DNA of 64,000 nt, from positions 102,111 through 166,110 of the forward strand of contig JBFMHM010000002.1 in NCBI GenBank assembly GCA_040753015.1. The letters run 5' to 3'. The translations under genes and the position numbers were made by a program. The notes under the pieces are model-generated. The model was not told the DNA's origin. It made no database searches and saw nothing but the letters and a program-made list of their open reading frames with translations. How positions within the stretch are numbered: position 1 is the first letter of the stretch; every line of letters starts with the position of its first letter. The stretch is from Candidatus Omnitrophota bacterium (GTDB taxonomy: Bacteria > Omnitrophota > Gorgyraeia > Gygaellales > JBFMHM01). This document shows, piece after piece, positions 1 to 24,566 of this stretch.

Positions 1-87
1 AAAATTATAACGTTCAAACTTACGCCGCTCTAAGCCACGCCAAACTTTTTTATCTAAGCTAACTTTTGCGATTTGTTTGGAATCCAT
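1..87 (-). CDS. 5' end of a gene that extends beyond the window start (N-terminus MDSKQIAKVSLDKKVWRGLERRKFERYNF); function unknown
   Basis: An ATG at 85-87 on the minus strand lies 4 nt downstream of the stop of the PP2C gene, and the frame stays open to position 1. It is the same orientation and tightly packed with the gene above, so it is probably the next operon member. Confidence 0.3.
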   Translation of the reverse strand, partial: MDSKQIAKVSLDKKVWRGLERRKFERYNF

Positions 88-91
88 ACTC

Positions 92-1993
92 TTATATACA
101 TTTAATAACAATTATTGTTAAATCATCGTGCTGAGTTGCACCATATGAAAACTTTGCAATCCCATCATTTATCCTACTAACCAATTCACTGGCTTTTAAA
201 TGCTTCGATTCAATAACATCATTAATAAGTTTTTGCTTACCAAAATCTTCTGTTTTAATTGATTTTGCCTCTATTACTCCATCAGTATATAAAACAATAA
301 TGTCATCTTTTTCTAACGGAAATTCTACTTGGGAAAATTGAGCCTCTTCTAATATACCCAGCGGAGGCCCAAAATCAAAATTTAATTCTATTGATTTTCC
401 TGCCCTTATTACGATAGGTGAAAAATGGCCTGCATTTGCAGCAATTATCTTCTTGTTTGCTATATCCAAAACTAAATAATTCATTGTAACAAAAATACTT
501 TCCCTTGACTCAATAGAAAGTTTATTATTAAGTTTTAATAATACGTCTTTGGGTAGATCGTTGGATTTTGCAAAATATCGGAAATCCGAAATGGTCTTAG
601 CCATAAAAAGCGCGGCCGGAACACCCTTTCCGGAAACATCTGCTATCATTACACCGATATTTTGATTACCAAGCTGAACAAAATCGTATAAATCCCCTCC
701 AATTTTTCTAGCAGGAACCATCAAACCGGCAATCTCAAAACACTCTGACCGAGGAAATCCTTTTGGTAAAAAACTCTCTTGAATCTTCTTAGCAACTATC
801 AGCTCTTTTTCAACAAGCTCATTTTTCCTTTTTTCATTTAAATATTTGAATAAATTAATTGATAAATAAATAATAAATAAAATTAAAATCGGATAGAATA
901 AATCAATCCATATTCCAAAATAATAAAAAGACACACAGCTTAATATAAATAAAATTACAATAATAAAAATAGTTAGGATTGAACCGTCTAAAAATTTAAA
1001 CTTTCTGTTTACAAAAATTGTCAGCAACGAAAAAAATAATAATAAAATAATATTTACAAAATGTGATGCGCGCATAATTGGACTACCCTGAACAATCATG
1101 TTAAAAATACTCGCATTAGATCCAACCATAGGATATGTGTTCTCAATAGGAATCGGATTTAAATCACATGTGGCAGTTGCTGTTAAACCAATAAAACAAA
1201 CTTTACCATTTAAATCATCTAAATTAATACGCGGAGTTTCTCCAAAAAGCGCTTGTTTATAACTCACTAAAATATCGTAATATGAATAATGCTTAAAAAC
1301 CTTATGCCATTTTCCAGGATAATTAATTAAACAACGAGCCTTATTATCTAAGGGTATCTTAGTAAAACTACCAATTTTAATAAATCTATCCGGAATAAAT
1401 TGTATGTTTCTTTGGTCTATCTTTAAATAATCAACAGCTGCTATCAAACTAATATGCGAAAATAAATTACTGCCATATTTAATAAATAAAGGTGCCCAAC
1501 GGTATTTGCCGTCTATATCCGGCATAGTACTTATAAAGCCTTGTGCCTTGCTTGCATCCTTTATTTTTTCTGCTATCTCAAGATCGGCTTTTTTTGCATC
1601 AAGAATATGTTTTGATTTACTATCAATACTAAGTACAAATGGCAAATAAACATTCCCTGATTCCTTAATTGCAAGGGCTAAATCATCATCTTGGTTAGTA
1701 GGATCGGAAAAAACAATATCAAAAATAATTTGTCTTACACCATATTCTTTTAGTATCCGGATTAATGTAGCATGGAAATCGCGCGGAATTGGCCAAGAAC
1801 CTAGTTCTTTCAGTGTATCATCAGAAACTTCTATTATTACAATATCCTTATTCCAATTTTGGGTAGGCCTTAATTTATAACGAAAATCAAAAGTAGGAAG
1901 CTCGAGAATATCAAAAACTCTTAAATAAGAAAATAAAATAAGTATAAAAAGTATCAAACAAGCTAAAAATAATTTTCTTATTTTAGAATTCAT
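92..1993 (-). CDS. CHASE2 sensor domain / multi-TM / PP2C (SpoIIE-RsbU type) serine phosphatase
   Basis: An N-terminal signal/TM segment is followed by a periplasmic domain of about 300 aa (CHASE2-like) and then a cluster of 4-5 hydrophobic helices. The C-terminal ~230 aa carry PP2C/SpoIIE hallmarks (MIADVSGKGVPAALFM ... LYTDGVIEA ... ATQHDDLTIIVIKCI). Confidence 0.8.
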   Translation of the reverse strand: MNSKIRKLFLACLILFILILFSYLRVFDILELPTFDFRYKLRPTQNWNKDIVIIEVSDDTLKELGSWPIPRDFHATLIRILKEYGVRQIIFDIVFSDPTNQDDDLALAIKESGNVYLPFVLSIDSKSKHILDAKKADLEIAEKIKDASKAQGFISTMPDIDGKYRWAPLFIKYGSNLFSHISLIAAVDYLKIDQRNIQFIPDRFIKIGSFTKIPLDNKARCLINYPGKWHKVFKHYSYYDILVSYKQALFGETPRINLDDLNGKVCFIGLTATATCDLNPIPIENTYPMVGSNASIFNMIVQGSPIMRASHFVNIILLLFFSLLTIFVNRKFKFLDGSILTIFIIVILFILSCVSFYYFGIWIDLFYPILILFIIYLSINLFKYLNEKRKNELVEKELIVAKKIQESFLPKGFPRSECFEIAGLMVPARKIGGDLYDFVQLGNQNIGVMIADVSGKGVPAALFMAKTISDFRYFAKSNDLPKDVLLKLNNKLSIESRESIFVTMNYLVLDIANKKIIAANAGHFSPIVIRAGKSIELNFDFGPPLGILEEAQFSQVEFPLEKDDIIVLYTDGVIEAKSIKTEDFGKQKLINDVIESKHLKASELVSRINDGIAKFSYGATQHDDLTIIVIKCI

Positions 1994-1999
1994 GTTGAA

Positions 2000-3016
2000 T
2001 TAGAATGTATAATTCAAACCGACCGTCGTTAAGCTACCTGAGTATTTTTGGCTGGGAACATTTGACACATTTTCTCTATAAGAATAGTCTAATATAGAAG
2101 ATAAGTATTTTGTAAAGTTATAGCTCAAGGATGCGTTAAAGGTATACGTGTATTCTTTTTCCGGAGAAGGATTACCGTCAAGCCATCTGCGGTCTTTATA
2201 CTGGCGTTTTTGAAAGCCAAAACTTGTATATCCCAGCAGTTTTTCAGTAAAGTTATACCCTAAACTAAGAACACCTCTATTTGAATAAAAATCATAGTAA
2301 TCTAAATAAAGCTCATTAGATTTATTTACGTAGAATTGATAACTAACCTTCGCATATAATTTCTTGAAAAAAATCCCGATTTCGTAAGCTGGCTGACTGC
2401 GATAATCAAATCTCTTTTTATCTGAAAAATTATAGTCTGCGAGCCTTCTGTTACGTGCTGTATAGTTCTTTGTGAGAAACGTAAATTTAAACGCGTGATA
2501 TAAACCTTTATAAATGTCGTGCCTTAAGCTAAAACCTAAATCATTTTCAACATAAGAGCTGTTGTCATCTTTAGGAAAAGCCAAGTATTCTATCTGATAA
2601 AATTTCTGGAATGTAAAAATTTTAAATAACTTTCTTGTCCAATCCAGTTTTAGAATATTATCAAGGAGCGTATTTTTAGTATATTTATCGTAATTTATAA
2701 CAGTAAAATTATATAATGCACCAGCGCTTGTTTTTTTACTAAAACTATAACGATAGTCGGCATTTATAATCGCCTCTTGAAATAAATCACCTTTTCTCGA
2801 CGAATCTAAGTTAGCGTTATTATCAAACCCTTGCATGGCCGTAACAAAAGCCCGAAACTTACCCTTTACGTCCTTGATTTTTTCTGGCCGGCCTGCTGTT
2901 GGATATTGAATATATTTCTCCTCTTCTGCTCTTTGAGCAAAAGAAAAATCACCTATAAAAAAGATGCTTATTAAAACAAATATTAATAATTTTATTTTCA
3001 CTATATTTTCCTCCAA
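2000..3016 (-). CDS. putative outer-membrane beta-barrel protein (signal peptide, alternating amphipathic strands, C-terminal ...GLNYTF)
   Basis: The N-terminal signal peptide is MEENIVKIKLLIFVLISIFFIGDFSFAQ. The sequence is rich in Tyr/Asn/Thr in alternating patterns and ends in an aromatic residue, typical of OM barrels. It sits inside the Mla operon. Confidence 0.4.
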   Translation of the reverse strand: MEENIVKIKLLIFVLISIFFIGDFSFAQRAEEEKYIQYPTAGRPEKIKDVKGKFRAFVTAMQGFDNNANLDSSRKGDLFQEAIINADYRYSFSKKTSAGALYNFTVINYDKYTKNTLLDNILKLDWTRKLFKIFTFQKFYQIEYLAFPKDDNSSYVENDLGFSLRHDIYKGLYHAFKFTFLTKNYTARNRRLADYNFSDKKRFDYRSQPAYEIGIFFKKLYAKVSYQFYVNKSNELYLDYYDFYSNRGVLSLGYNFTEKLLGYTSFGFQKRQYKDRRWLDGNPSPEKEYTYTFNASLSYNFTKYLSSILDYSYRENVSNVPSQKYSGSLTTVGLNYTF

Positions 3017-3024
3017 ATTCTCAT

Positions 3025-3849
3025 TTACCAGCCTCTTCTTGCATCATTCTCATTGTCATTATCCATTCTTGATTCGGATCTTTGCTCTACAGCTTCAGAC
3101 CGCGATTCATGTATTGCTTCAAAACGGGCTTCGCGGCCATCCTCCATTATTTGGAATCTTTCTTCCGCATCTTCAAAATCTTCTTCTCCGCCGGATTGCT
3201 CATTTGGATTTAGAAATGTTCTTTTATGTTTCTCGATACCAGACTTTATTTTATTCCATTTATTTATTTGACCTTTACTTAATTTCTCAAGTGCCGATGG
3301 TGGGTTAAATTCATCTACGCTCGATTTAAAGCCAGCAGGAATATCGATTTGGCCTAAAATACTGCCATCTTTAGCTAAACCCGCGGCATATATCGTATGC
3401 TCATAACCTTCAATATCAGTTTTGCCGCCTTCTATAGCCATTGACCATCCTGTGCCACGAGCTCCTGCTACTGCTTGAGGCGTGCGCACTTCAAAAGTAG
3501 AGCCCTTATCTAAATTATCAATTATAGAAAACACTCTCCCCTTAACAATGCTCACCTTAACCGGATTAAAACTTTGAATGCTAAATATTGAATATTCATC
3601 TATTTTTACAATATTACCAATTTTCTCATCAAACGCGATTTCAACTGTACTCTTTTTATTTGTTTTTAATATATCTCCTGCATGAATTGAATCGCCAACT
3701 TTTCCTTTTCTGGAATCACCTGTATCCTTTGTCTGAATAATAACATCACCTTTTACATAAATTAATTTTGCGGAATCTATAGCAGCGAATAAAGGCATAG
3801 CAATAGAAAAAAGAAAAAAAATAGTTAAAACAATAGCTGTTTTTTTCAC
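3025..3849 (-). CDS. secreted FecR-domain protein with acidic C-terminal tail
   Basis: It has a signal peptide and a FecR-like core (GKVGDSIHAGDILKTNKKSTVEIAFDE ... FEVRTPQAVAGARGTGWSM). The C-terminal ~60 aa are Glu/Asp/Arg-rich and low in complexity. Confidence 0.45.
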   Translation of the reverse strand: MKKTAIVLTIFFLFSIAMPLFAAIDSAKLIYVKGDVIIQTKDTGDSRKGKVGDSIHAGDILKTNKKSTVEIAFDEKIGNIVKIDEYSIFSIQSFNPVKVSIVKGRVFSIIDNLDKGSTFEVRTPQAVAGARGTGWSMAIEGGKTDIEGYEHTIYAAGLAKDGSILGQIDIPAGFKSSVDEFNPPSALEKLSKGQINKWNKIKSGIEKHKRTFLNPNEQSGGEEDFEDAEERFQIMEDGREARFEAIHESRSEAVEQRSESRMDNDNENDARRGW

Positions 3850-3850
3850 G

Positions 3851-4474
3851 TTAATCCTCCTCTTTATTTTTTTTAGTATCTTTTGGTTTTTCTTTTGTTT
3901 TGTATAAAAGTTTCCACGGGTATGTTTTTATATCTTCGCTGAACTCTTTCATATTTTCACTTACAATTTTTAAATTCGCTATAGATGCATTTAAATCTTT
4001 TTTGTTTAAAACTAAAATATCATCTAAACTCTTAGAAATAGAATCTGCTCTTTTCATGAGCATATCCATATCAATAGGATTTTCGCTTAAAATAAAAGAT
4101 TTTTTATCAAGGAACGCGGCGCCATCTGATCCGCGGGAAATTTCAATATATTTTTCTCCCATAAGCCCCAAAATAGCAAGACGTGCAGTTGAATCAACTC
4201 TAGGTCTTGCCTGGCTATTCAACCATAAGGTAAGACGAATTTGTGTCCTATTATCATCGTATATTAAATTAATATCCCTCACCTCACCAACTTCAAAACC
4301 AGAAAGCCGGACTGGTGCATGCTTCATCAGGCCATCAACAGAATTAAAATATACATAAAATTCATTACCATCTTTTGCAAAACGATAAGCCCCTACCTTA
4401 ATTGTCAAAACGAATAAAACAATCAGAGTAATTATAATAAGCGCCCCTACCTTAATTGCATTCTTTATTTTCAT
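3851..4474 (-). CDS. mlaD: MlaD (Mce-domain periplasmic component of phospholipid ABC transporter)
   Basis: A single N-terminal TM anchor is followed by an Mce domain (YVYFNSVDGLMKHAPVRLSGFEVGEV). It is immediately downstream of mlaF/mlaE. Confidence 0.8.
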   Translation of the reverse strand: MKIKNAIKVGALIIITLIVLFVLTIKVGAYRFAKDGNEFYVYFNSVDGLMKHAPVRLSGFEVGEVRDINLIYDDNRTQIRLTLWLNSQARPRVDSTARLAILGLMGEKYIEISRGSDGAAFLDKKSFILSENPIDMDMLMKRADSISKSLDDILVLNKKDLNASIANLKIVSENMKEFSEDIKTYPWKLLYKTKEKPKDTKKNKEED

Positions 4475-4483
4475 AATAATCTC

Positions 4484-5287
4484 CTATACCAATAAATCTT
4501 TTAAATAATCATCGGAATTTTGAACAAAAGAAACCGGCCCTTCCGGTTCTCCTTTTATAAATTGCTGCACAAGCCCATCCTTAGAATTTCTTATTTCATC
4601 TGGCGAACCGTTAGCAATAACTTTTCCTTTATGCAGCATAATAATCCTATCGGCAATACTAAACACACTTCTCATATCATGAGTAACAACAACTGATGTT
4701 ATAACTAATTTTTCTGTTAAATCTCGGATTAATTTATCGATTACGGCTGACATTATCGGGTCTAACCCAGCTGTCGGCTCGTCATAAAAAACAACTTCGG
4801 GATCCATAGCAATTGCCCGCGCAAGCCCAACGCGTTTTTTCATACCGCCTGAAAGCTGAGAAGGCATAAGATTTTGGAATCCACTCAATCCCACAAGCTG
4901 TAATTTCATTTTTATTATAAGATCGATTATATGTGGGTCTAGCTTAGTATGCTCGAGTAGAGGAAGTGAAACATTACCTTTTACATCTAAAGAATCAAGA
5001 AGTGCTCCTGACTGAAAAAGAATTCCAAACCTCTTTCGTATCCCATCAAGCCCGTCTTCATCTAATTCATTTATATCTTTACCAAAAAAATTTACTTTCC
5101 CCTGATCTGGCTTCATTGCGCCAACTAAATGACGTAGTAAAGTCGACTTACCGCACCCAGAACCACCCATTACTACTAAAAGCTCTCCTCTATATACTTC
5201 TAAATCTACGCCGTTAAGAACAGCTCTTTTGCCAAAATATTTAACTAAATTTTCGGTTTTTATAATTATTTCTCTAACATTATTCAT
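4484..5287 (-). CDS. mlaF: MlaF, ABC transporter ATP-binding protein
   Basis: Walker A is GGSGCGKST, the ABC signature is LSGGMKKRVGLARA, and Walker B is VVFYDEPTAGLD. Confidence 0.85.
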   Translation of the reverse strand: MNNVREIIIKTENLVKYFGKRAVLNGVDLEVYRGELLVVMGGSGCGKSTLLRHLVGAMKPDQGKVNFFGKDINELDEDGLDGIRKRFGILFQSGALLDSLDVKGNVSLPLLEHTKLDPHIIDLIIKMKLQLVGLSGFQNLMPSQLSGGMKKRVGLARAIAMDPEVVFYDEPTAGLDPIMSAVIDKLIRDLTEKLVITSVVVTHDMRSVFSIADRIIMLHKGKVIANGSPDEIRNSKDGLVQQFIKGEPEGPVSFVQNSDDYLKDLLV

Positions 5288-5290
5288 AAA

Positions 5291-6088
5291 TTATATTTTT
5301 GCAAAATAAAAAATTCCTGTCAAGATACAATCTGCAAGAATTATTAAAATAAAGCTCGTAACAACACTAACCGTTGTTGCGCGGCCTACACCCTCTGCGC
5401 CACCTTCAGTAGTCAAGCCTTTATAGCATGCAACCAGAACAATCAATATAGAAAAAATAAATGATTTAAATATACCTGTATAGATATCTTTAAGTGTTAA
5501 AAATTTAATTGTTATATCAATATACAAATAAGGGTTAATATTCAAGTTTGTTATTCCTATCAAGAACCCGCCTATCATACCTATAATGTTGCCTAGCAAT
5601 GTAAGACAGGGAAGCATAATTATTAACGATAAAAAACGCGGAACAACTAAAAATCTTACTGGATTTATTGCCATAACTGACAATGCCTCTATTTGTTCAT
5701 TTACTTTCATCGATCCTATCTCAGCAGTAATAGCTGCGCCAATCCGCCCAGCGATAACAAGAGCGGTCAACACTGGCCCTAGCTCTCTAACAATAGAAAC
5801 ACCGACAAACGAAGAAATATACATTACCGCACCAAATTTAGCTAGCTGTGGCGCCCCCTGCATAGCCAAAACAATACCCGTAAAAAGCATAACAAAAAAT
5901 ACAATAATCAAAGATTGTATCCCCATAAAAACCATCTGATATAACACAGAATCCACAGGAATATTTTTTTTCTTAAACGGACCAATAAAAATCCAATATA
6001 ACGTCTGGCCAAATAATAATAATATCTGCCATAATTCAGAAATAATATTTAACGTGTAAATTCCTATATTTTCATAAAATTTATTCAT
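5291..6088 (-). CDS. mlaE: MlaE, ABC transporter permease
   Basis: It is a polytopic membrane protein with the conserved MlaE core (ALVIAGRIGAAITAEIGSMKVNEQIEAL). Confidence 0.85.
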   Translation of the reverse strand: MNKFYENIGIYTLNIISELWQILLLFGQTLYWIFIGPFKKKNIPVDSVLYQMVFMGIQSLIIVFFVMLFTGIVLAMQGAPQLAKFGAVMYISSFVGVSIVRELGPVLTALVIAGRIGAAITAEIGSMKVNEQIEALSVMAINPVRFLVVPRFLSLIIMLPCLTLLGNIIGMIGGFLIGITNLNINPYLYIDITIKFLTLKDIYTGIFKSFIFSILIVLVACYKGLTTEGGAEGVGRATTVSVVTSFILIILADCILTGIFYFAKI

Positions 6089-6091
6089 TAG

Positions 6092-6430
6092 TTAAAAATT
6101 TTGAAGCGCTTCTTCTTCACTAGAAAAAATATTAAATAACTTATCAAGCTTAGTAATCTCAAATAATGAGCTTACTTTTTCTGATAAATTAGATAACCGC
6201 ATTAATCCATTATTGCGCTTTACCCGCTGCAATATTTCGATTAAAGTTGCTAACCCAGAACTATCTATATACGAAACATTATTCAAATTCAGTAAAATTT
6301 TTTTACTATCTTCTCTTACTAGCTTCTCAAACTCTTTTCGCATATTAGGAGATGTATTAATATTAATCTCTCCTTTGACCGAACAAACAATCACATCGTT
6401 AGATTGTTTCTCTTTTATTTCAAGATTCAC
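6092..6430 (-). CDS. STAS-domain anti-sigma-factor antagonist (SpoIIAA/RsbV type), positioned where MlaB would be
   Basis: It is 112 aa with the canonical phosphorylatable motif (SYIDSSGLATLIEIL). Its start overlaps the stop of the kinase gene by 4 nt. Confidence 0.8.
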   Translation of the reverse strand: MNLEIKEKQSNDVIVCSVKGEININTSPNMRKEFEKLVREDSKKILLNLNNVSYIDSSGLATLIEILQRVKRNNGLMRLSNLSEKVSSLFEITKLDKLFNIFSSEEEALQNF

Positions 6431-6873
6431 TTAGGCCTCCTATTTAAAATGGCGTTGCTTTTAGACGGCTTTACGCCGATGAATTTCTCCATCGTAATCA
6501 TATTGCCTTTTTTGTTAAAACTCACTCGATCCATTAATTTTTTTATTAAAAAAACTCCTCTACCACTGGTCCTTTGTAAATTTTTGCCTAAAATTGGATT
6601 TGCAATTTTATTATAATTATAACCTTGCCCCTCATCCTTAATGCTTAAAATTATTAAATTATTATTTATTATTAAATTGCATTCAACTGTTAATTTTTTA
6701 TCAAATTTATTGCCATGTTTTATAGCATTAATTATGGCCTCTTCTAATGATAGCCTTATATCCTCTAAGGAATCCTTTGACAAATTTAATTCTTTTAACT
6801 GGCCTAATATTTCTCTGCTAACACAATTTATCTTTGATAAATCTGAAGATATTTTAAATATCATTGTTTCCAA
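6427..6873 (-). CDS. anti-sigma regulatory factor / GHKL serine-protein kinase (RsbW/SpoIIAB type)
   Basis: The HATPase_c N-box (EAIINAIKHGN) and G-boxes (IKDEGQGY ... SGRGVFLIKKLMD) are present. The protein is about 148 aa. Confidence 0.75.
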   Translation of the reverse strand: METMIFKISSDLSKINCVSREILGQLKELNLSKDSLEDIRLSLEEAIINAIKHGNKFDKKLTVECNLIINNNLIILSIKDEGQGYNYNKIANPILGKNLQRTSGRGVFLIKKLMDRVSFNKKGNMITMEKFIGVKPSKSNAILNRRPK

Positions 6874-7373
6874 AGACCCCTATTATTCTCGCGGGCTTGC
6901 TTTTGTAAATTCAAAAATAATTCTTGGTGTTTAACATTTGGCGGAATAGTCATTGTCTGCGCATAACCTTCTTCAATAATTTTTGCATTTATAAATGTAT
7001 TGTCCTCTAAATAAACATATGCCAAAAGTCTTCCGTATTTATCATAATGCTCAATATCAAATTCAATGCTCACCGCCTTACCTTCAACTAGACTTTTAGT
7101 AAATTGATAGGCAAGCCGGCCCTGGGCTTGAATTACCTTTATATCTTTTTTAGTCCGCTTTGCATCGCGATAAAGTTTATCACTTTCATGCATCTCTGGT
7201 GTATCAAGGCCAATTAGACGCACCTTCTGGCCATTATTAAGCAGTAAAGTATCTCCGTCTATAACCCTTTTAACTATAAATATTTTATGGATATGATTTT
7301 GACTACCTCTAGGACATTCTTGCGCAAAACAAATAACCGGAATTAATAAAAACAATATAAAAAGTTTTTTCAC
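6861..7373 (-). CDS. secreted thermonuclease (staphylococcal/micrococcal nuclease, SNase family); GTG start
   Basis: It has a signal peptide and the SNase catalytic motifs (VIDGDTLLL ... VRLIGLDTPE ... YGRLLAYVY). The start is a GTG inside the sequence AAGTGAAA, overlapping the TGA stop of the upstream small ORF. Confidence 0.8.
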   Translation of the reverse strand: MKKLFILFLLIPVICFAQECPRGSQNHIHKIFIVKRVIDGDTLLLNNGQKVRLIGLDTPEMHESDKLYRDAKRTKKDIKVIQAQGRLAYQFTKSLVEGKAVSIEFDIEHYDKYGRLLAYVYLEDNTFINAKIIEEGYAQTMTIPPNVKHQELFLNLQKQARENNRGLWKQ

Positions 7374-7537
7374 TTTGACTGCCCTGTATTATTAATACCT
7401 GCATCTTTGACTGGCTCTTCTTGTTTTTGCTCATCTTCACCGCTTCTCCAGCGCCCACCAGCCCATTGTTTTATTGAAGCGCAGCCATTTAAAAAAAATA
7501 TAAAAATAAATCCTATAAATAATATATTTTTAATCAT
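7370..7537 (-). CDS. small lipoprotein (56 aa; MIKNILFIGFIFIFFLNGC-ASIKQWAGGRWRSGEDEQKQEEPVKDAGINNTGQSK), not in the supplied ORF track
   Basis: I translated this by hand from the minus strand. It has a hydrophobic h-region ending in a lipobox (L-N-G-C). There is GGGGG about 6 nt upstream of the ATG. Its stop overlaps the GTG start of the nuclease gene (GTGA). Confidence 0.45.
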   Translation of the reverse strand: MIKNILFIGFIFIFFLNGCASIKQWAGGRWRSGEDEQKQEEPVKDAGINNTGQSK

Positions 7538-7596
7538 TTTAACCCCCGATATAAATATAATTTTACCAAAAAGATAAATAAATTTAAAGAATTATA

Positions 7597-8229
7597 TTAA
7601 CTATCCAGCATCCTCAAATCTTTTGTAAGTTCCGTCTCTAAAAATAAGTATCTTTTGGTAACCGGATGAACAAATTCTATAGACTTAGCGTGTAAAGCGA
7701 CACGCCTAAATTTAAGACTATAATCTTTCGCAAAAGCAAATTTTCGCTCACCAACCAAAGGATGCCCTATTTGTTTAAAATGTATCCTAATCTGATTAGT
7801 GCGCCCTGTAATAGGCCTAACTAAAACTTTAACATAATTAGAATAGTCTTTTAAAACTTGATATTTGGTAATCGCGCTCTTTAAAATATCGTGTTCGGGA
7901 ATTTTATTATCAATCAAACCTGACATTTTTTTTAATCTACCATGAACAAAGGCAATATAAGTTTTTTTTATTTTTCTTTCTAGAAATAACCGCATAATCG
8001 CTGCCTGAGTTGCCTTATCTTTTGCATAAATGATTATTCCAGAAGTATCTCTATCTAACCTATGAACAGGATAGGCATGCATATTAGGATTATTTTTCTC
8101 TAGATAAGTATTAACAATTGCTGTAAGCGTGTGTTTTTCTTTTTTTGGCGTGGGTACAACTAAAATCCCAGGAGGCTTATCAACTGCGATGAGCCAATCA
8201 TCTTCAAAGATTACTTTTGGCTCTATCAT
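7597..8229 (-). CDS. RluA-family RNA pseudouridine synthase
   Basis: The catalytic motif is HRLDRDTSGIIIYAK. Confidence 0.8.
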   Translation of the reverse strand: MIEPKVIFEDDWLIAVDKPPGILVVPTPKKEKHTLTAIVNTYLEKNNPNMHAYPVHRLDRDTSGIIIYAKDKATQAAIMRLFLERKIKKTYIAFVHGRLKKMSGLIDNKIPEHDILKSAITKYQVLKDYSNYVKVLVRPITGRTNQIRIHFKQIGHPLVGERKFAFAKDYSLKFRRVALHAKSIEFVHPVTKRYLFLETELTKDLRMLDS

Positions 8230-8233
8230 TATT

Positions 8234-9427
8234 TCAAACTTTTAATTTAATTTTTATAAATTTTTTCTTACCAATTTTAAAAAGATATTCTCTTGCATAT
8301 GATATTTTATAATCCAAACTCGTTACTGTTTCACTATTAATAGATACCGCACCCTGTGACAGAAGACGCCTAAATTCATTCTTTGAGGCAATGCCTAATG
8401 TTGAAATTAAATTTAATTCTAAAAGCTCATTTAAACTAAATTCTTTTTCAGATTCTACTTTAATTATTTTTTCTTCCATATTTTGAGGCAGTTCCTTTTT
8501 TTGAAAGATTTTTTCAAAACATTCTCTTGCTCTAATAGCTTCGGCCTCAAGATAATATTCAGAAACAATAAATTCCGCTAATTTCTTTTTTGCATCAAGC
8601 GGATGCATTTTTTTAACTTCATTGATATCAAAATTAGTAAGTGTTTCATAAAACTTAATCATGAGCTCATCGGATATCGACATAAGTTTTCCGAATATTT
8701 CCTGCGGCGGCTCATTTATTGAAACATAGTTACCTAGGGACTTACTCATTTTATTTACACCATCAAGGCCAACAAGAAGAGGAGTCATAATTACGACTTG
8801 CGGTTCTTGGCCAAAATCTTTTTGAAGTTCTCTGGCTAAGAGTAAATTAAATTTTTGATCTATCCCCCCAAGTTCAATATCTGCCCTAAGCTCTACCGAA
8901 TCATATGCCTGCAAAAGAGGATAGAAGAATTCTAAGAGAGAAATATCCCGCCCATTTTTATATCTATCACTAAAATCTGCCCGCGCAAGAAGTTGAGCTA
9001 TCGTGATATGTGAAGCCAAATCTAGAATCTTTTCGGATGGAAGATTAATCAACCATTTACTATTAAAAACGACTCTAGTTTTTTTTGGATTAAGAATTTT
9101 AAAGACTTGTTTTTTATAGGTTTGGGCGTTGGATAAAACCTCTTTCGCTGAAAGTCTTGGCCTCTGTTTGTCTTTACCTGAAGGATCTCCAATCCTAGCC
9201 GTAAAGTCCCCAATTAAAAAGTATACAATATGGCCAAGATCCTGAAAAAGACGAAGTTTCCTTAAAATAACTGAGTGACCCAAATGAATATCGGCAGCAG
9301 TAGGATCAAATCCAGCTTTAATTACAAGTGGACGATTTTTTTTTAATTTATTCTTAAGATCGTCATCCGAAATTATTTCGGATGTGCCGCGTCTTATTAA
9401 TTTTAGCTGTTCTTCAATTGACAGCAT
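8234..9427 (-). CDS. tyrS: tyrosyl-tRNA synthetase
   Basis: It has the class I HIGH-type motif (ADIHLGH), KMSKS and a C-terminal S4-like domain. Confidence 0.9.
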   Translation of the reverse strand: MLSIEEQLKLIRRGTSEIISDDDLKNKLKKNRPLVIKAGFDPTAADIHLGHSVILRKLRLFQDLGHIVYFLIGDFTARIGDPSGKDKQRPRLSAKEVLSNAQTYKKQVFKILNPKKTRVVFNSKWLINLPSEKILDLASHITIAQLLARADFSDRYKNGRDISLLEFFYPLLQAYDSVELRADIELGGIDQKFNLLLARELQKDFGQEPQVVIMTPLLVGLDGVNKMSKSLGNYVSINEPPQEIFGKLMSISDELMIKFYETLTNFDINEVKKMHPLDAKKKLAEFIVSEYYLEAEAIRARECFEKIFQKKELPQNMEEKIIKVESEKEFSLNELLELNLISTLGIASKNEFRRLLSQGAVSINSETVTSLDYKISYAREYLFKIGKKKFIKIKLKV

Positions 9428-9434
9428 TTTTTAA

Positions 9435-10973
9435 TTATATTTTTGCCGATAAACCAATTTTAGCTTCTTCAATATCGACTTTTATTATCTTCGCCTCTAA
9501 CTTATCGCCAACCTTAAGGTTCTGTAGCGCTTCTTTATCGATTTCGTTTGAATAAATTAACCCTTCAATATCTTCCTCTAGCTTAGCAAAAACACCAAAT
9601 TCAGTAATACTTACAACGGTAACTTCTATAATTTTACCTACAGGATAAGCCTCAGATATTTGCGGCCATGGATTAGCAAGTAGCTGTTTTAACCCTAAAG
9701 AAATCTTCCTATTTTTCCCATCAACAGAAATAACCATTGCTTCAATCTTTTGCCCTTTTTTAAGAATATCTTGTGGCCGGGCGATTCTCTTTGTCCAAGA
9801 AAGATCACTAACATGAATCATGCCTTCAAGATTACCTTCAAGCTCTATAAAAGCTCCGTAATCTGTAAAACCTCTCACCACTCCCGTTACTCTTGAGTTA
9901 ACTGGAAATCTTTCTTCTGCTTCAAGCCAGGGATTTACCTCAAGCTGCTTTATACTTAATGATATACGGCGGCTATCGCGGTCAATATTTAAAACTTGCA
10001 CTTCAATAATGTCGCCGATTGCAAAAGTATCGCTAAGATTAGTAATTTTTTTTGACCAAGAAATTTCAGAAATATGCACTAAACCCTCGATTCCTTTTTC
10101 AAGCTCAACAAATATTCCATAAGGCAGTATATTAACTACCTTGCCTTTTGTTTTTGAACCAGAAGGATATTTATTTTCGATATTTTCCCAGGGATCAGGC
10201 AACCTCTGTTTTAACCCTAAAGAAACTTTTTCATTATCTTTATCGATTGATAGTATAGTTAACTCTATTTGATCATCTATCGCAACCACTTCGGATGGAT
10301 GATTAACTTTAGACCATGACATATCAGTTATATGCAAAAGCCCATCAACACCACCTAGGTCGATAAATGCACCAAAATCAGTAATTGCTTTAACCTTACC
10401 TTTCACTACCTGCCCTGCTTCAAGCTTAGACCAAAGCTCTCCCTTTGCAGCCTTTACTTCGCGTGCTTGAGCTTCCTTTCGCGACAAAATAAGGCTTTTT
10501 CTAAGATTATTCATTTTAGTAATCTTGAATTTAAAAACCTTATTAATAGTCTCGCGATCAGACATATTCTTAAAGGTTGATAATGATGCCGGTAAAAATC
10601 CAACCACCCCCCAAACATCAACCATATATCCACCCTTAACTTTTCTTATTACCTTACCATCAACCATTTCGTCATTTTTTTGACAATCTACAATAGTTTG
10701 CCAGCCTTTTAATTTCTTTGCCTTCTCATAGGAAAGAACTATCATCCCCTCTTCATTTTCTGTAGCCTCAACCAAAACTTCGATTTCACGGTCTATCTCA
10801 AGCTCTTCCTTGGAAAACTCGATAATCGGAATTATGCCTTCTGACTTATATCCAACATCAATAAATACCTCATTTTTACCTATAGAAACGATTTTACCTT
10901 TAACAATCTGCCCTTCCTTAACTTCTTTAAAACTCATCGAATATAGATCTTTTAACTCTTGTGATGTTTCCAT
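9435..10973 (-). CDS. rpsA: 30S ribosomal protein S1
   Basis: It contains repeated S1 RNA-binding domains (..GKV..I..FGAFIDLGG.DGLLHI..). Confidence 0.9.
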   Translation of the reverse strand: METSQELKDLYSMSFKEVKEGQIVKGKIVSIGKNEVFIDVGYKSEGIIPIIEFSKEELEIDREIEVLVEATENEEGMIVLSYEKAKKLKGWQTIVDCQKNDEMVDGKVIRKVKGGYMVDVWGVVGFLPASLSTFKNMSDRETINKVFKFKITKMNNLRKSLILSRKEAQAREVKAAKGELWSKLEAGQVVKGKVKAITDFGAFIDLGGVDGLLHITDMSWSKVNHPSEVVAIDDQIELTILSIDKDNEKVSLGLKQRLPDPWENIENKYPSGSKTKGKVVNILPYGIFVELEKGIEGLVHISEISWSKKITNLSDTFAIGDIIEVQVLNIDRDSRRISLSIKQLEVNPWLEAEERFPVNSRVTGVVRGFTDYGAFIELEGNLEGMIHVSDLSWTKRIARPQDILKKGQKIEAMVISVDGKNRKISLGLKQLLANPWPQISEAYPVGKIIEVTVVSITEFGVFAKLEEDIEGLIYSNEIDKEALQNLKVGDKLEAKIIKVDIEEAKIGLSAKI

Positions 10974-10995
10974 TATATAACCACCCTTATTTTTA

Positions 10996-11865
10996 TTATT
11001 TACTTTTTAAATAGTTTAACAATTCACTAACTAAAAAACTCGGTGTAGATGCACCGGTTGCAATTCCTGCAGTCTTAATTCTGCTTATTACATTGCCTTT
11101 ATTTCTTAATTCGCTAATTTTTTCAATATGAAAAGTTTTTACTCTCGTCTGTTGGCATAACTCATTCAGGCGCTTTGTATTAGCACTATTTTTCCCGCCG
11201 ATAATAAACATAGCATCAACCTCCTTTGATAACTCGATAACTTCTTTTTGCCTGGAGATTGCGTCAGCACAAATAGTATTAAATACTCTCACCTCCTTAA
11301 TAAACGAATTCTCCCAAAGAAAATGATAAATAAAACTAAAGTATTTATCTTTTGCCTGTGTAGTTTGGGAAATTATGCCAAAAACTAGTTTATTATTATC
11401 CTTTAATTTAATAAATTTGTCAAGTAAAAGATGCGTTGAAGGACTAACGATAAATGCCTGAGGTATACGGCTCTTAATTGCTCTTATTTCCGGATGCTTT
11501 TTATCACCATAAATTATTATTTGATAATTTTGTTTTTTTAATGATTCGGCTATTCTATAAACTTTACTAACATAAGGACAAGTTGTATCAACTATTTTTA
11601 TTTTTTTTCTTGCTAATTCCTTAATTATATTTTCCGGGACCCCGTGAGAAGGTAAAATTAATATAGCATTGTCTTTAATTTTGCTTATATCATTAATTAC
11701 TATAAGACCCAAACCCATTAATTCTTCAATAACACCCTTATTATGGATAATTTGGCCAAGCGAATAAACCGGTGATTTTGACTTAGCTAAAACATTCTTA
11801 GTTAAATCGAGTGCACGTCTTACACCTTGACAAAACCCGATAGTTTTTGCAATTTTAACTCTCAT
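10996..11865 (-). CDS. ispH: 4-hydroxy-3-methylbut-2-enyl diphosphate reductase
   Basis: The N-terminus is MRVKIAKTIGFCQGVRRA, with conserved Cys residues and the HG/SQTT motifs. It shows the classical linkage with rpsA. Confidence 0.9.
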   Translation of the reverse strand: MRVKIAKTIGFCQGVRRALDLTKNVLAKSKSPVYSLGQIIHNKGVIEELMGLGLIVINDISKIKDNAILILPSHGVPENIIKELARKKIKIVDTTCPYVSKVYRIAESLKKQNYQIIIYGDKKHPEIRAIKSRIPQAFIVSPSTHLLLDKFIKLKDNNKLVFGIISQTTQAKDKYFSFIYHFLWENSFIKEVRVFNTICADAISRQKEVIELSKEVDAMFIIGGKNSANTKRLNELCQQTRVKTFHIEKISELRNKGNVISRIKTAGIATGASTPSFLVSELLNYLKSK

Positions 11866-12443
11866 CCTTTTAAATTATTAATAGATTCCATAATTTTATT
11901 TAATACATATTCTCGCGATAATTCATTTTGATAATATATCGGCCTGCCAAACTTTACAGAAACATCACAAAAATTAATCCTACTAGCATGCTTAGGCCAG
12001 GCATAAGAAGCCCCACTAACATACGCAGGAACAACTGGCACGTTGGCGCTTTCAGCAAGTAATGCAACCCCTGCCTTTATACCTCTTACTTCTTCACTGT
12101 CGCGGCTACCCTGAGGAAACATTACCATAGCATGCCCATTTTTCAAAAATTTAATTGCTTTTTTTATTGCAGAAAAATCGTTAAATCCGCGCTTAATTGG
12201 AAAAACCCCTAGTTGTTTTAGAAATAAAGCAAACAAAGGATTTATAAAAAGCGTATCCCTCGCCATAAACTTCAATTTTATCGGAACGCTTACCCCAAGG
12301 ATTATTGGATCTAAGAAACTCGTATGATTGCTTGCAACAATGTAACCTGTTTTTCGAGGAAGGTTTTCTTGGCCTGATGTTTTTAAATTAAAAAATAATC
12401 TGAGCAATACGAATGAAATAAACCTGCTAATAGTATAAATCAT
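11862..12443 (-). CDS. plsC: 1-acyl-sn-glycerol-3-phosphate acyltransferase
   Basis: The HX4D motif is present (SNHTSFLDP), with a short N-terminal TM segment. Confidence 0.75.
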   Translation of the reverse strand: MIYTISRFISFVLLRLFFNLKTSGQENLPRKTGYIVASNHTSFLDPIILGVSVPIKLKFMARDTLFINPLFALFLKQLGVFPIKRGFNDFSAIKKAIKFLKNGHAMVMFPQGSRDSEEVRGIKAGVALLAESANVPVVPAYVSGASYAWPKHASRINFCDVSVKFGRPIYYQNELSREYVLNKIMESINNLKG

Positions 12444-12448
12444 ATGCC

Positions 12449-13837
12449 TTACTTACTAAATACTAGCTCTCTGCCAAAATTGAGTAATTCCTTTGCTCTT
12501 TTTTGCGTGGTCGCTTCGGAGTAAATTCTCATTATCGGTTCAGTCCCTGATGCGCGCATCATAAGCCAGCTTTGATCAGAACATGTAAGTCGAACCCCAT
12601 CTGAATCCTTAACATCGATAACATCTTTACCAAGTAAATTTTTATAATTTTTGAAATCGTTTATATTAAACTTAACGCCATCAATATTAAAATGATCTTT
12701 TAGATAATAAAATCTACCGTATTTCTGTTCCATGTCATTAATTAATCGCTTGAGCGTCTTGTTTCTAAACGCCATCATCTCAAGTAAGAGTAAAATTGCA
12801 AGACTACCGTCGCGCTCTGGAATATAATTTTTAAAACCCATGCCGCCCGCCTCTTCGCCTCCAACAACAACGTCTTCTCTCTCCATTAAATCAGAAATAT
12901 ATTTAAAACCAACTGGTGTTTCATATAATTTAACATTAAACCCTTTTGCAATATTATCCATCATTGTAGTACCAACAATGGTTTTTACAATTCCCCCGGA
13001 TAATTTACGATCTTCATTTAAGTGCAAAGCAAGTAAACCCAAAATCTTTTGAGGACTAATAAATTCGCCATCTTCAGTTACCGCCGCAAGCCTATCTGCA
13101 TCACCATCTAAAACAAAACCAGCACTAAACTTATCTTTCTTAACTCTCTTTAATAACTCCTGCACATATTCAGCAACAGGTTCGGGCCTCATGCCGCCAA
13201 AGGACGGATTAATATCATCATGCATAAAATCAATTTCTATATGACTATTTTTTAACACATCCTTTAAAAATGTATTCCCGCTCCCATGCATAACATCTAC
13301 AAGAATCCTAAATTTTGCTCTTTTTATAATTTTCAAATTAATATATAAAGATAGTGCCTTGATGTAATCTTTAGTAATATTTTTTATAACAATGTCTTTT
13401 TTATCCATTAATATAATATCTTTTTGATTTATTGTCGGAATAATTTTTTCAACTTCTTGAGTAATGCTAGCTCCAGCGGCTCCGCCGGTTGAGGTTTTGA
13501 TTTTTATTCCATTAAACTCAGCTGGGTTATGGCTTGCTGTGATCATAACCCCTAGATTGCATTTATTATCTTTAACCGCCAAACTTAAAGCTGGCGTTGG
13601 AACTGATTGATCCGACAGAAACACTAATATATCATTAGCTGCGATAACCTGTGCTGTTATAGAAGCAAACTTATCCGATAAGAAACGATTATCAAAACCT
13701 ACTGCCATCTTAATATTTTTGCCGAATGTTCTTTTTGCATAAATTGCAATGGCTTGAGCCACTAACTTCACATTTTCAAATGTAAATTCATCAGCAATCA
13801 CTGCACGCCATCCGTCTGTACCAAATTTAATCATCAA
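12449..13837 (-). CDS. phosphomannomutase/phosphoglucomutase (alpha-D-phosphohexomutase family)
   Basis: It begins with FGTDGWRA, has the active-site Ser loop (GVMITASHNP) and a metal loop (DGDADR). Confidence 0.8.
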   Translation of the reverse strand: MMIKFGTDGWRAVIADEFTFENVKLVAQAIAIYAKRTFGKNIKMAVGFDNRFLSDKFASITAQVIAANDILVFLSDQSVPTPALSLAVKDNKCNLGVMITASHNPAEFNGIKIKTSTGGAAGASITQEVEKIIPTINQKDIILMDKKDIVIKNITKDYIKALSLYINLKIIKRAKFRILVDVMHGSGNTFLKDVLKNSHIEIDFMHDDINPSFGGMRPEPVAEYVQELLKRVKKDKFSAGFVLDGDADRLAAVTEDGEFISPQKILGLLALHLNEDRKLSGGIVKTIVGTTMMDNIAKGFNVKLYETPVGFKYISDLMEREDVVVGGEEAGGMGFKNYIPERDGSLAILLLLEMMAFRNKTLKRLINDMEQKYGRFYYLKDHFNIDGVKFNINDFKNYKNLLGKDVIDVKDSDGVRLTCSDQSWLMMRASGTEPIMRIYSEATTQKRAKELLNFGRELVFSK

Positions 13838-20193: not shown

Positions 20194-21873
20194 TTAATAA
20201 AGTTTCTCTTCTATTATACGTTTGTTATTATCTCGTTTTTTATTCTTTTTTACTACTTTATTGCTGAGAAGTGGAACTTTTGGCGGAATCTGATGCTCCC
20301 GCTGTTTCTCTAATTGTTTAATATGTTCTATTCTAAAATCATCGTCTTCTAATACATGGGTTGTAATAAAAATTAACAGGTCGACTTTTTCGGTATCGCT
20401 TGTTGTACGCCTAAAAACATTACCTACTAAAGGTAAATCTTTCAATAAAGGCACGCCTATAACTTCTTCGGTCTTAACATCTTTAAGCAAGCCCCCCATT
20501 ACAACGGTTTGGCCGTTTTCAATGAGCACCTGAGTTTGTGCCTCTCTAACATTGATAATCGGATATGTGTCAGAGCTAGTTATTGCCGTTGCTCCGGTAC
20601 CAATAACTGAAGTTGCGGTTACATTTGCTGTAGATGATGTAACACTTGGATGAATAATTAAATTCACAGATTTTCCATCTTCTGAAACTTGAGGAACTAC
20701 ATTAAGCCTTATACCAATTTCTTGATAATAATCTAGGGTCTTACTAAGCATTGGCCCGGTAGTTGTTGAACCTGCGGTCATTTCACTTTTTATAATCGGC
20801 CTATGCAACCCTACTAAAATTCCTGCCTCCTGATTATCTAATGTTAAAATGCTCGGGCTTGATAAGGTATTTGTATCTGCGTCTTCTTCTAAAGCATGAA
20901 GTATAACCTCAAGTTGAGCCCCTGTAAGTTTCTTTAGTATAAACTGTAAACCAGCATTATATGGATATGTGCCAAGTAATCCCGTTGACAATGGATTAAA
21001 TGCAGAAGGCGTAATCTGAGAAATCAATGACCTTCCTGACCCTTGCATATCATCCCTAAAACCTGCCCCTTTATTTATAGGAGTGAATTCAGGAGTTGTA
21101 TAGCTCTGGGCACCGGTTGATCCTGTTGAAAAATCAACGCCGATATCTTTTAAGGTATCCCTGTTAACCTCCATTATCCTAGCTTGAATTAAAACTTGTT
21201 TTGGTTTTTTATCGATTTCTGGCAAAATAACATTCCTAATTTTATCCAAAACAATCGCAGTATCTGTTATAATTAAAGTCTTTGATTTTATATCGCCGCC
21301 TTCTTTGCCTCCCGGCCCCTCAACCCTCTCCGGGGCTTCGGTTGATCCTTCTTTGCCTATTTTAAAAGTCCCAAATTTCCATCCTTTTTGACCCCTTACA
21401 TCAAGAACTGTTACATTCCCACGCGCTGAAAGCTGCGGCCTTATTGCATTTGCTGCATCGTGAGCATCAAGATACCTAAGATCAAATACTTCTGTTCTTA
21501 GCGGCTCCGACTCTTGCATTTTTAAAACATCCTCTAGCTTCATTACCATAATTACATTTTCCTGCTCAACATAACCATAATTATAAGTCTTTAAAATAAT
21601 ATCTAAAGCATTTTTCCATGGAGTATCTTCAATGCTAACAGAAATTTGCCCCATCACATCAGGCTTTGGTACAATATTTACACCAGCTTTTTCTGAAATT
21701 ATCTTAAGAACACTTCTAATATCTGCGTCTTTAAAATTTAAAGAAACATTGCCTGCTTTAGAAATAACATGTTCAGAACTCAAATCTTGAACCGGCACTT
21801 CTACGTCTTGTGCATAAACAAGGCTATTTGAAAAGAAAAAATAAATACACAATAATAGTTTCAAACCTTTCAT
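20194..21873 (-). CDS. pilQ: type IV pilus secretin PilQ
   Basis: It has a signal peptide, N0/secretin_N domains and a C-terminal secretin domain. It follows pilMNOP. Confidence 0.85.
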   Translation of the reverse strand: MKGLKLLLCIYFFFSNSLVYAQDVEVPVQDLSSEHVISKAGNVSLNFKDADIRSVLKIISEKAGVNIVPKPDVMGQISVSIEDTPWKNALDIILKTYNYGYVEQENVIMVMKLEDVLKMQESEPLRTEVFDLRYLDAHDAANAIRPQLSARGNVTVLDVRGQKGWKFGTFKIGKEGSTEAPERVEGPGGKEGGDIKSKTLIITDTAIVLDKIRNVILPEIDKKPKQVLIQARIMEVNRDTLKDIGVDFSTGSTGAQSYTTPEFTPINKGAGFRDDMQGSGRSLISQITPSAFNPLSTGLLGTYPYNAGLQFILKKLTGAQLEVILHALEEDADTNTLSSPSILTLDNQEAGILVGLHRPIIKSEMTAGSTTTGPMLSKTLDYYQEIGIRLNVVPQVSEDGKSVNLIIHPSVTSSTANVTATSVIGTGATAITSSDTYPIINVREAQTQVLIENGQTVVMGGLLKDVKTEEVIGVPLLKDLPLVGNVFRRTTSDTEKVDLLIFITTHVLEDDDFRIEHIKQLEKQREHQIPPKVPLLSNKVVKKNKKRDNNKRIIEEKLY

Positions 21874-24336: not shown

Positions 24337-24341
24337 ATAAA

Positions 24342-24566
24342 TTAAATAATAAGTGGCTCTTCTTGTTGTTCATCTGTACCTTTATCTTCTTTTTCTATAT
24401 TCTCTATATTAAATATTGGCTGTGCTGGCTGTTCGTCAACCTTAATACTTTCTTGTATTTGCTCGGGAATTTTTTTAGCTTCATTATTAATGTGATTTAT
24501 CCAAAATATAAAAACTAAAATAATTATAAAAAAGATAATAAATATATATAATAATTTCGACTTCAT
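24342..24566 (-). CDS. small single-pass membrane protein (start likely the internal MKSKLLYIFIIFF...)
   Basis: The hydrophobic helix is followed by an acidic tail. If the internal Met is the start, the gene begins right after the stop of the upstream gene. Confidence 0.35.
   Translation of the reverse strand: MKSKLLYIFIIFFIIILVFIFWINHINNEAKKIPEQIQESIKVDEQPAQPIFNIENIEKEDKGTDEQQEEPLII

Follow-up and report, generated by a model that had tools for sequence, protein, structure and literature searches.

The 64,000-nt stretch of Candidatus Omnitrophota bacterium analyzed here (contig JBFMHM010000002.1, positions 102,111 to 166,110; hereafter the window) carries on its minus strand, from position 7537 down to position 92, an operon in which an Mla-type (MCE) lipid transporter is encoded together with the components of a partner-switching system. 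The ten open reading frames (ORFs) of this run were confirmed with the domains first listed for them, using Pfam and NCBIfam models, and they encode, in order, a small lipoprotein, a secreted staphylococcal-type nuclease (SNase), a GHKL serine kinase, a STAS protein, the permease MlaE, the ATP-binding cassette (ABC) ATPase MlaF, an MlaD-like protein, a FecR-domain protein, an outer membrane (OM) β-barrel and a CHASE2-PP2C phosphatase (Table 1). The gene order and tight spacing given in a preliminary description of this DNA hold throughout, with all junctions consisting of overlaps or gaps of 1–9 nt. The lipoprotein/SNase and kinase/STAS junctions are GTGA overlaps, the latter with a GGAGG 5 nt upstream, and the SNase/kinase junction is an ATGA overlap, given a kinase start at ATG 6864, while the gaps measure 3 nt (STAS/mlaE and mlaE/mlaF), 9 nt (mlaF/mlaD), 1 nt (mlaD/fecR), 8 nt (fecR/barrel) and 6 nt (barrel/PP2C). 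The genes of the operon are translationally coupled. STAS, mlaE and mlaF (4484–6430, minus strand) share one reading frame, with a stop and a single sense codon between each. A consensus scan for promoters and terminators over positions 1–8400 returned counts at shuffle expectation and is uninformative on transcription units.

Table 1. Position and assignment of the features discussed in the text; coordinates refer to the window unless preceded by a locus label.
Feature	Coordinates	Strand	Match or remark
CHASE2 + SpoIIE/PP2C phosphatase, 633 aa	92..1993	-	CHASE2 151 bits (residues 16-324); SpoIIE PF07228 156 bits (444-631)
OM beta-barrel, 338 aa	2000..3016	-	BBP2_2 29.5 bits (cutoff 23.7); signal peptide; ends ...NYTF
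Secreted FecR-domain protein, 274 aa	3025..3849	-	PF04773 33 bits; acidic C-terminal tail
MlaD-like protein, single MCE domain, 207 aa	3851..4474	-	PF02470 65 bits (cutoff 25); N-terminal transmembrane helix
MlaF-like ABC ATPase, 267 aa	4484..5287	-	best family PRK11831; C-terminal extension
MlaF handshake motif Y261-x-x-D-L265-L266	~4490-4507	-	
MlaE-family ABC permease, 265 aa	5291..6088	-	PF02405 257 bits; TIGR00056 251 bits (above cutoff 212)
RsbV/SpoIIAA-type single-domain STAS, 112 aa	6092..6430	-	TIGR00377 95 bits
S57, predicted STAS phospho-acceptor	codon 6262-6260	-	
RsbW/SpoIIAB-type GHKL serine kinase, 145 aa from ATG	6427..6864	-	HATPase_c_2 (PF13581) 81 bits
SNase, secreted staphylococcal-type nuclease	6861..7373	-	PF00565 84 bits; signal peptide
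Putative lipoprotein, 55 aa	7370..7537	-	lipobox L-N-G-C; no family match
Type IV pilus-like cluster	20194-35982	-	secretin-like, pilMNOP-like, pseudopilins, two GspE/PilB-like ATPases (by eye)
Receiver-HD_5 protein	29619-30686	-	Pfam
MshEN-domain protein	34110-34553	-	Pfam
HAMP-GAF-GGDEF protein	34555-35982	-	Pfam
Two-gene pair	44134-44659	-	82-aa protein with sub-threshold CopG-antitoxin/NikA-like matches; overlapping 96-aa ORF without family match
Giant ORF, 3584 aa	44696-55450	-	begins with Clp-like AAA lid sequence (by eye)
1312-aa ORF adjoining the giant ORF	55483-59421	-	signal peptide; no Pfam match
Kinase-STAS-CHASE2-PP2C, directly, without Mla	L092:331-3059		
ABC-2 transporter (ATPase + permease), kinase, STAS, HD_5 (HD-GYP-like), FecR, barrel, without Mla	L106:162-4802		

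By sequence and predicted fold, the STAS protein is of the RsbV/SpoIIAA type and lies outside the MlaB family. Its score against the anti-sigma antagonist model TIGR00377 exceeds the cutoff of 53 bits, whereas it reaches 29.6 bits against the MlaB model NF033618, below the cutoff of 90, and its best sequence matches in the PDB are TM1442 (7e-16), RsbV and SpoIIAA, with MlaB chains at E values of about 0.01. The AlphaFold2 model (pLDDT 90) displays a β1-β2-α1-β3-α2-β4-α3-β5-α4 topology that includes strand β5 (residues 100–102) and helix α4 (residues 105–109), both of which are missing from MlaB, a minimal STAS protein (PMC7367683). Foldseek comparison of this model yields a TMq of 0.89 to SpoIIAA (1THN_B) versus 0.61 to MlaB (6XGY_B). 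The protein hence sides with SpoIIAA instead of grouping firmly with MlaB, and its earlier designation as MlaB-like is not borne out by sequence or fold; its placement in the MlaB position is right insofar as the STAS gene lies within the mla operon, and loose in that mlaB is the final gene of mlaFEDCB in E. coli. By analogy, the protein could still work like MlaB. Its S57 aligns with T52 of E. coli MlaB and, in the predicted structure, occupies the N-terminus of α2, which begins at that very residue, the place of the phosphorylatable serine in partner-switching STAS proteins. The D56-S57-S58-G59-L60 motif is invariant in 51 orthologues, as are the flanking Y54, A61 and T62, and the DSSG[LI] form is invariant across the STAS proteins.

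The kinase gene was originally delimited by a mechanical ORF starting at TTG 6873 (6427–6873), and alignment with 13 orthologues places its start at ATG 6864. The best NCBIfam matches of the protein are RsbW (59 bits) and SpoIIAB (50 bits), both below their equivalog cutoffs, and SpoIIAB and RsbW are also among its PDB sequence matches, where they rank below a 304-aa chain named 'SenB' (9QIH_A, E 9e-10). The N-box (E42/N46/G51/N52), the G1 box (D77xG79xG81) and the G2 box (G101-R102-G103) show no variation among 14 orthologues. The kinase precedes the STAS gene, which is the reverse of the order seen in rsbV-rsbW and spoIIAA-spoIIAB. At two related loci the two proteins are encoded by a single ORF without an intervening stop (L030:9249-9989, 246 aa; L083:88-846, 252 aa); this may be a natural fusion of kinase and STAS, or else an assembly error encountered at both loci.

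Among the transporter proteins, the ATPase has MlaF as its best family (PRK11831, 248 bits over model positions 6–266 of 270), but this score stays under the 441-bit equivalog cutoff of the model. Its best PDB matches are all MlaF, and its alignment to P. aeruginosa MlaF (7CH8, 243 bits) covers the full length, including a terminal ...DYxxDLL. The Y261, L265 and L266 residues of its C-terminal extension bear the same residue numbers as the handshake positions (Tyr261, Leu265 and Leu266) through which MlaF clamps MlaB in E. coli (PMC7367683). The MlaD-like protein scores 78 bits with TIGR04430, below the equivalog cutoff of 135. No gene for MlaC or MlaA is present in the operon, and MlaEFD alone is regarded as the ancestral core of the system (PMC10665443).

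The phosphatase completes the set of partner-switching families, which comprises a STAS protein, a GHKL kinase with its characteristic boxes and a PP2C domain. This protein begins with a transmembrane helix, followed by the CHASE2 domain, by additional hydrophobic segments and by a PP2C domain on the cytoplasmic side; the PF07228 match spans model positions 3–190 of 192, and the GGDLYDF, ADVSGKG, YTDG and HDDLT motifs, including the metal-binding Asp, are intact as read in the translation. Genes for a FecR-domain protein, related to Leptospira Lsa33 and LipL45, and for a barrel adjoin this CHASE2 protein in the window, and the three form a trio common to eight related loci (L002, L022, L068, L073, L076, L077, L081 and L084). 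CHASE2 receptor clusters with a FecR-domain OM protein have been reported in the Campylobacterota (PMC9239204), and the OM barrel NsrA of S. meliloti, as related in PMC13001267 citing Garnerone 2018, transmits a plant signal to CHASE2 cyclases. Sixteen loci with a kinase-STAS-first operon, window included, are long enough to show the interval from mlaD to the PP2C gene, and in 10 of them it contains the FecR and barrel genes; wherever related loci have the FecR gene, the barrel gene comes with it. The pair was assigned to the sensor module because it is missing from the other 6 intervals, persists at the Mla-less locus L106 and matches a documented association with CHASE2; its interpretation as a periplasmic or OM leg of the Mla system was rejected on the same three counts. 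Past the stop codon of the PP2C gene, at a distance of 14 nt, a further minus-strand ORF begins and runs out of the window (1–76); its 25 visible codons (MDSKQIAKVSLDKKVWRGLERRKFERYNF) contain an RRxxxR motif like that at the N-terminus of PilZ domains. At five related loci (L002, L068, L069, L073 and L081), PilZ genes are found a few genes upstream of the kinase.

Conservation of the linkage in the Omnitrophota

The Omnitrophota are an uncultured, largely host-associated phylum, and the conservation of the operon within it was assessed through three samples with different biases, centered on STAS, on the kinase and on MlaE. All counts derive from pattern-seeded scans and represent samples rather than censuses. 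Among the best 120 STAS homologues listed (51–80% identity), all named ones belong to the Omnitrophota/Omnitrophica; some third-party annotation metagenome-assembled genomes are titled 'uncultured Planctomycetales', and their MlaE identity of about 60–66% matches that of the Omnitrophota set. The conserved unit is a core of kinase, STAS, MlaEFD and CHASE2-PP2C, which was met again, in no fewer than three gene orders, at about 30 further Omnitrophota loci. Because it recurs in some 30 independent contigs, the arrangement is far beyond chance, and the linkage holds at 36–50% kinase identity and 51–80% STAS identity. The observation that the STAS protein comes with its own kinase and sensor phosphatase extends to divergent Omnitrophota, where the trio is conserved with mlaEFD.

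In the STAS-centered sample, six orthologues (P0013, P0075, P0073, P0113, P0109 and P0004; 51–71% identity), picked only for their long contigs, all lie in a kinase-STAS-MlaE-ABC-MlaD arrangement, followed by CHASE2-PP2C in five of the six, whereas the genes flanking the arrangement on either side show no relation from one locus to the next. The kinase-centered scan of metagenomes used an alignment of 14 kinases as a query and was hence blind to Mla; among the closest kinases, 16 of the 18 contigs with sequence past STAS run into MlaE, the other two being L092 and L106, and the kinase-first order is specific to this Mla-linked orthogroup, whereas more distant kinases in the same scan show the classical STAS-kinase order without Mla. 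The MlaE-centered scan, based on GTDB species representatives, returned 54 Omnitrophota MlaEFD loci, of which 5 have kinase-STAS upstream, 3 are arranged as CHASE2-PP2C-STAS-MlaEFD-kinase-STAS, 1 as MlaEFD-kinase-STAS and 1 as MlaEFD-STAS. No STAS gene was found within 10 kb of the remaining 44, 30 of them flanked on either side by 1.5 kb or more of sequence, with a hidden Markov model of 120 orthologues at E values up to 10, so these operons really lack a neighboring STAS.

At least three gene orders can be distinguished: kinase-STAS-MlaEFD-[FecR-barrel]-PP2C, as in the window; PP2C-STAS-MlaEFD-kinase-STAS (L032, L041 and L042), where the CHASE2-PP2C gene lies directly upstream of STAS; and MlaEFD-kinase-STAS (L023). 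In the first, the CHASE2-PP2C gene is present in 13 of the 14 related loci, the window not counted, that have enough downstream sequence. The loci with the second order (positions ~7700–13100 in each) encode two STAS paralogues, both with DSSGI, and an MlaF without the C-terminal Y..LL, and a CysA/TOBE-type ABC ATPase gene lies just upstream of the module. The nuclease and lipoprotein, which the preliminary description counted as operon members, are co-located with the conserved unit in the window and lie outside it: no related locus has SNase upstream of the kinase, the lipoprotein ORF was not seen in any of them, and both are peculiar to the version of the operon in this genome. The slot they occupy is filled in 12 related loci (L022, L034, L068, L069, L071, L073, L076, L077, L081, L082, L084 and L085) by accA, which encodes the acetyl-CoA carboxylase carboxyltransferase alpha subunit, and the resulting accA-kinase-STAS-mlaEFD string is a recurrent link to fatty-acid synthesis. 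A further candidate was set aside: in Mucilaginibacter sp. OK268 (L062:12807-17554, minus strand), an RsbW-like kinase gene (149 aa) lies near MlaEFD, probably by coincidence, since it belongs to a convergent operon and comes with no STAS match. This kinase gene is flanked by ORFs of 1109 and 141 aa, converging on MlaEFD.

The distribution of the C-terminal motif of MlaF was traced across the loci. Counted over complete MlaF sequences as a terminal Y[LVI]xx[LF], it occurs in 18 of 21 MlaF proteins from kinase-STAS-first operons and in none of 46 from STAS-free operons, which end shortly past EGPIQ. This parallels the situation in Veillonella, where an MlaF that operates without MlaB has been reported to have a shorter extension (PMC10665443). 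The association of the motif with kinase-STAS-first operons is strong, but it follows phylogeny.

The target of the switch

Partner-switching modules are best known for controlling sigma factors, and a search for a sigma target was carried out with phmmer, using as queries approximate sequences of SigB and SigF from B. subtilis and of RpoE and FliA from E. coli, which makes the test itself approximate. Neither the 64-kb window nor any of the module-bearing loci has an ORF of the sigma-70 family that matches these queries, and seven such ORFs matched in other fetched loci serve as a positive control. Pfam tables for the flanks of six loci and for ambiguous ORFs of the window contain no sigma factor, and the remaining window genes, as judged by eye from their N-termini, appear to be housekeeping genes, a type IV pilus cluster, mreBCD/rodA and two giant ORFs. 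The claim that no sigma factor is encoded nearby consequently stands for the window and for the module-bearing loci, about 20 of which offer flanks of 7–10 kb for inspection. The search argues against a co-encoded sigma target, leaving room for one elsewhere in the genome.

Since the full switch and an Mla-type transporter share an operon, the transporter, and not a sigma factor, is probably its target. We put at roughly 0.5 the probability that a phospho-switch on the STAS subunit gates the Mla transporter, the transporter itself being the output, and consider it an even bet that the operon represents a complete partner-switching trio, specific to the Omnitrophota, built around this transporter. 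In E. coli, MlaB contacts the helical subdomain of MlaF via helices α1–α3, with T52 central in the interface, and the phosphomimetic T52E substitution weakens MlaF binding (PMC7367683). Along these lines, we infer a course of events in which the STAS-MlaF contact, the phosphorylation, the sign of the regulation, the signal and the lipid substrate are all postulated. Unphosphorylated STAS would dock by its helical face, with S57 at the N-terminus of α2, on the helical subdomain of MlaF, and would be clamped by the C-terminal Y261/L265/L266 handshake of the neighboring MlaF, in the manner of E. coli MlaB; once docked, it would stabilize or activate MlaFE. Phosphorylation of S57 by the RsbW-like kinase would then free STAS and turn the transporter off, and the membrane-bound CHASE2-PP2C would dephosphorylate STAS on sensing a cue from the envelope or periplasm, turning the transporter on again. 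In many genomes, the secreted FecR-domain protein and the OM barrel would probably pass this cue on.

A classical partner switch, in which the kinase acts as the anti-sigma factor of a remotely encoded sigma factor and mla is either co-transcribed or part of an envelope-stress regulon, would account for the kinship of the kinase and STAS proteins, in sequence and fold, with RsbW/SpoIIAB and RsbV/SpoIIAA. SigF-like and ECF-like (extracytoplasmic function) sigma genes are indeed present in the Omnitrophota (loci L026, L028, L047 and L053), orphan STAS-kinase pairs without an adjoining sigma gene are common in the same scan, and the trio can stand alone, as it does in L092. We nevertheless deem such an arrangement unlikely, in view of the sigma-free surroundings described above, of the three gene orders in which mlaEFD either lies between STAS and PP2C or has module genes on both sides, of the reversed gene order that singles out the Mla-linked orthogroup, and of the MlaF C-terminal motif that goes with kinase-STAS-first operons. 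The kinase could also be the effector itself, binding and inhibiting MlaF, MlaE or another product of the operon until dephosphorylated STAS pulls it off. The conserved linkage fits this canonical partner-switching logic equally, and the single-ORF kinase-STAS proteins of L030 and L083 suggest that kinase and STAS act as a unit. We know of no precedent, however, for a GHKL anti-sigma-type kinase that binds an ABC ATPase. The documented contact between a STAS protein and an ABC transporter is that of MlaB with MlaF (PMC7367683), and the C-terminal motif of MlaF that clamps STAS is retained here, which makes an effector kinase rather improbable.

The transporter might conversely provide an input, with lipid flux and the CHASE2 signal being integrated on STAS and the output lying elsewhere, for instance in cyclic di-GMP (c-di-GMP) metabolism. 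At locus L106, an HD_5 gene indeed takes the place of mlaEFD between STAS and the FecR-barrel pair, and both the recurrence of PilZ genes near the operon and the RRxxxR-containing ORF that follows the PP2C gene in the window could be read in this light; most loci, however, show no conserved additional output gene, and the PilZ genes are several genes distant, so that we hold an input role to be very doubtful. It is harder still to credit that the cassette and mlaEFD are mere neighbors by descent in one lineage, with no direct functional link. All loci do come from one phylum, and most related MlaEFD operons lack the module, but the linkage has been kept at the levels of kinase and STAS divergence given above, and all parts are still adjacent after at least three rearrangements and amid differing flanks.

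Several observations weigh against a STAS-gated transporter. The RsbV/SpoIIAA character of the STAS protein, in both sequence and fold, makes docking in the manner of MlaB a matter of analogy. The terminal motif is found in none of the five MlaF proteins of the subclade with PP2C-STAS-MlaEFD-kinase-STAS or MlaEFD-kinase-STAS operons, and in a crude distance (neighbor-joining) tree of MlaE and MlaF without support values, the kinase-STAS-first operons fall into a basal grade; since the distribution of the motif follows phylogeny, its counts do not represent independent events. Furthermore, the approximately 44 Omnitrophota MlaEFD operons without any STAS within 10 kb indicate that STAS is not obligatory for this transporter family, and kinase-STAS modules without Mla occur on two related contigs (L092 and L106). 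Lastly, the lack of a nearby sigma gene carries little weight, because the more distant STAS-kinase pairs of the same scan have no sigma gene beside them either.

The rest of the window

The window is AT-rich (about 31–36% GC), and its strand co-orientation over 64 kb is extreme: each of the 56 non-overlapping ORFs with 70 aa or more (1–64000) lies on the minus strand, and the GC skew is negative throughout. The receiver-HD_5, MshEN and HAMP-GAF-GGDEF proteins encoded within the type IV pilus-like cluster identify it as a c-di-GMP-linked pilus locus. Giant genes are a reported feature of the Omnitrophota, and the two-gene pair that lies beside the giant gene of the window looks like a toxin-antitoxin pair.

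Comparison with known systems

As a post-translational regulation of Mla lipid transporters, phosphorylation of MlaB at T52 has been proposed by Thong et al. 2016 (PMC5016091) and Kolich et al. 2020 (PMC7367683), neither of whom had a kinase, and no kinase or phosphatase for it has been found. Since the Omnitrophota operon encodes STAS, kinase, sensor phosphatase and transporter together, and conserves them, it renders the MlaB phosphoregulation hypothesis directly testable with six or seven recombinant proteins. If the transporter is indeed gated by STAS, partner switching would extend from sigma factors to the direct control of a membrane transporter, the operon would constitute a natural realization of the regulation hypothesized for E. 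coli in 2016 and 2020, and a CHASE2 sensor would become tied to envelope lipid homeostasis. In the literature searched, no published description of a kinase-STAS-Mla operon was found and no paper names MlaB together with RsbW; the only relevant papers naming both MlaB and SpoIIAB are the two E. coli MlaB papers, and the 15 top-ranked of 256 papers matched for partner switching and Mla contain no partner-switching term. Outputs of partner switches other than sigma factors are already known, as is MlaB phosphoregulation as a hypothesis. That this is the first partner switch with an ABC transporter as its output, in which a signal across both membranes sets the phosphorylation state of STAS, STAS on MlaF gates lipid transport, and the whole is perhaps ancestral to the kinase-less MlaB, is a tentative proposal to which we give slightly less than even odds.

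The closest counterpart on the transporter side is MlaFEDB of E. coli and P. aeruginosa, which shares with the Omnitrophota operon a STAS gene within the mla operon, homologous MlaE, MlaF and MlaD proteins, a Ser/Thr at the equivalent N-terminal position of α2 (S57 here, T52 in MlaB) and a C-terminal extension of MlaF, ending here in Y261-x-x-D-L265-L266. Unlike MlaB, the STAS protein of the window has the full SpoIIAA-type fold, with β5 and α4, fails the MlaB model and is accompanied by a kinase and a phosphatase of its own, unlike the STAS protein of any Mla system described, and the genes are arranged as STAS-E-F-D instead of F-E-D-C-B, with MlaC and MlaA missing from the operon. On the regulatory side, the RsbU-RsbV-RsbW-SigB and SpoIIE-SpoIIAA-SpoIIAB-SigF switches of Bacillus likewise combine a PP2C phosphatase, a phospho-Ser STAS protein and a GHKL serine kinase, the catalytic motifs of which are intact here. 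They differ in having a linked sigma gene and the opposite order of kinase and STAS, whereas the Omnitrophota phosphatase bears an extracytoplasmic CHASE2 domain and an ABC transporter is encoded between the genes of the module.

Partner switches that act on targets other than sigma factors include SypE/SypA of V. fischeri, HsbR/HsbA and SiaABCD of P. aeruginosa and BtrUVW of Bordetella. The HenR/All4160 partner switch of Anabaena acts on an exopolysaccharide biosynthetic enzyme (bioRxiv 10.64898/2026.04.08.717354). As in these non-sigma systems, the phosphorylation state of STAS would directly control a non-transcriptional target in the Omnitrophota, with the unphosphorylated form proposed to be active, but the presumptive target here is the ATPase of an ABC transporter. 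The sensor side, in turn, resembles S. meliloti NsrA with CyaD1/CyaD2/CyaK and the CHASE2 cyclase clusters of the Campylobacterota, in which an inner-membrane CHASE2 protein is likewise found beside a FecR-domain protein and a barrel. In contrast to those systems, the output domain is a PP2C phosphatase instead of a cyclase, and FecR and barrel are separate small proteins, dispensed with between mlaD and PP2C in over a third of the kinase-STAS-first loci (6/16). By analogy with the CHASE2 cyclase systems, this neighborhood suggests a trans-envelope signal relay.

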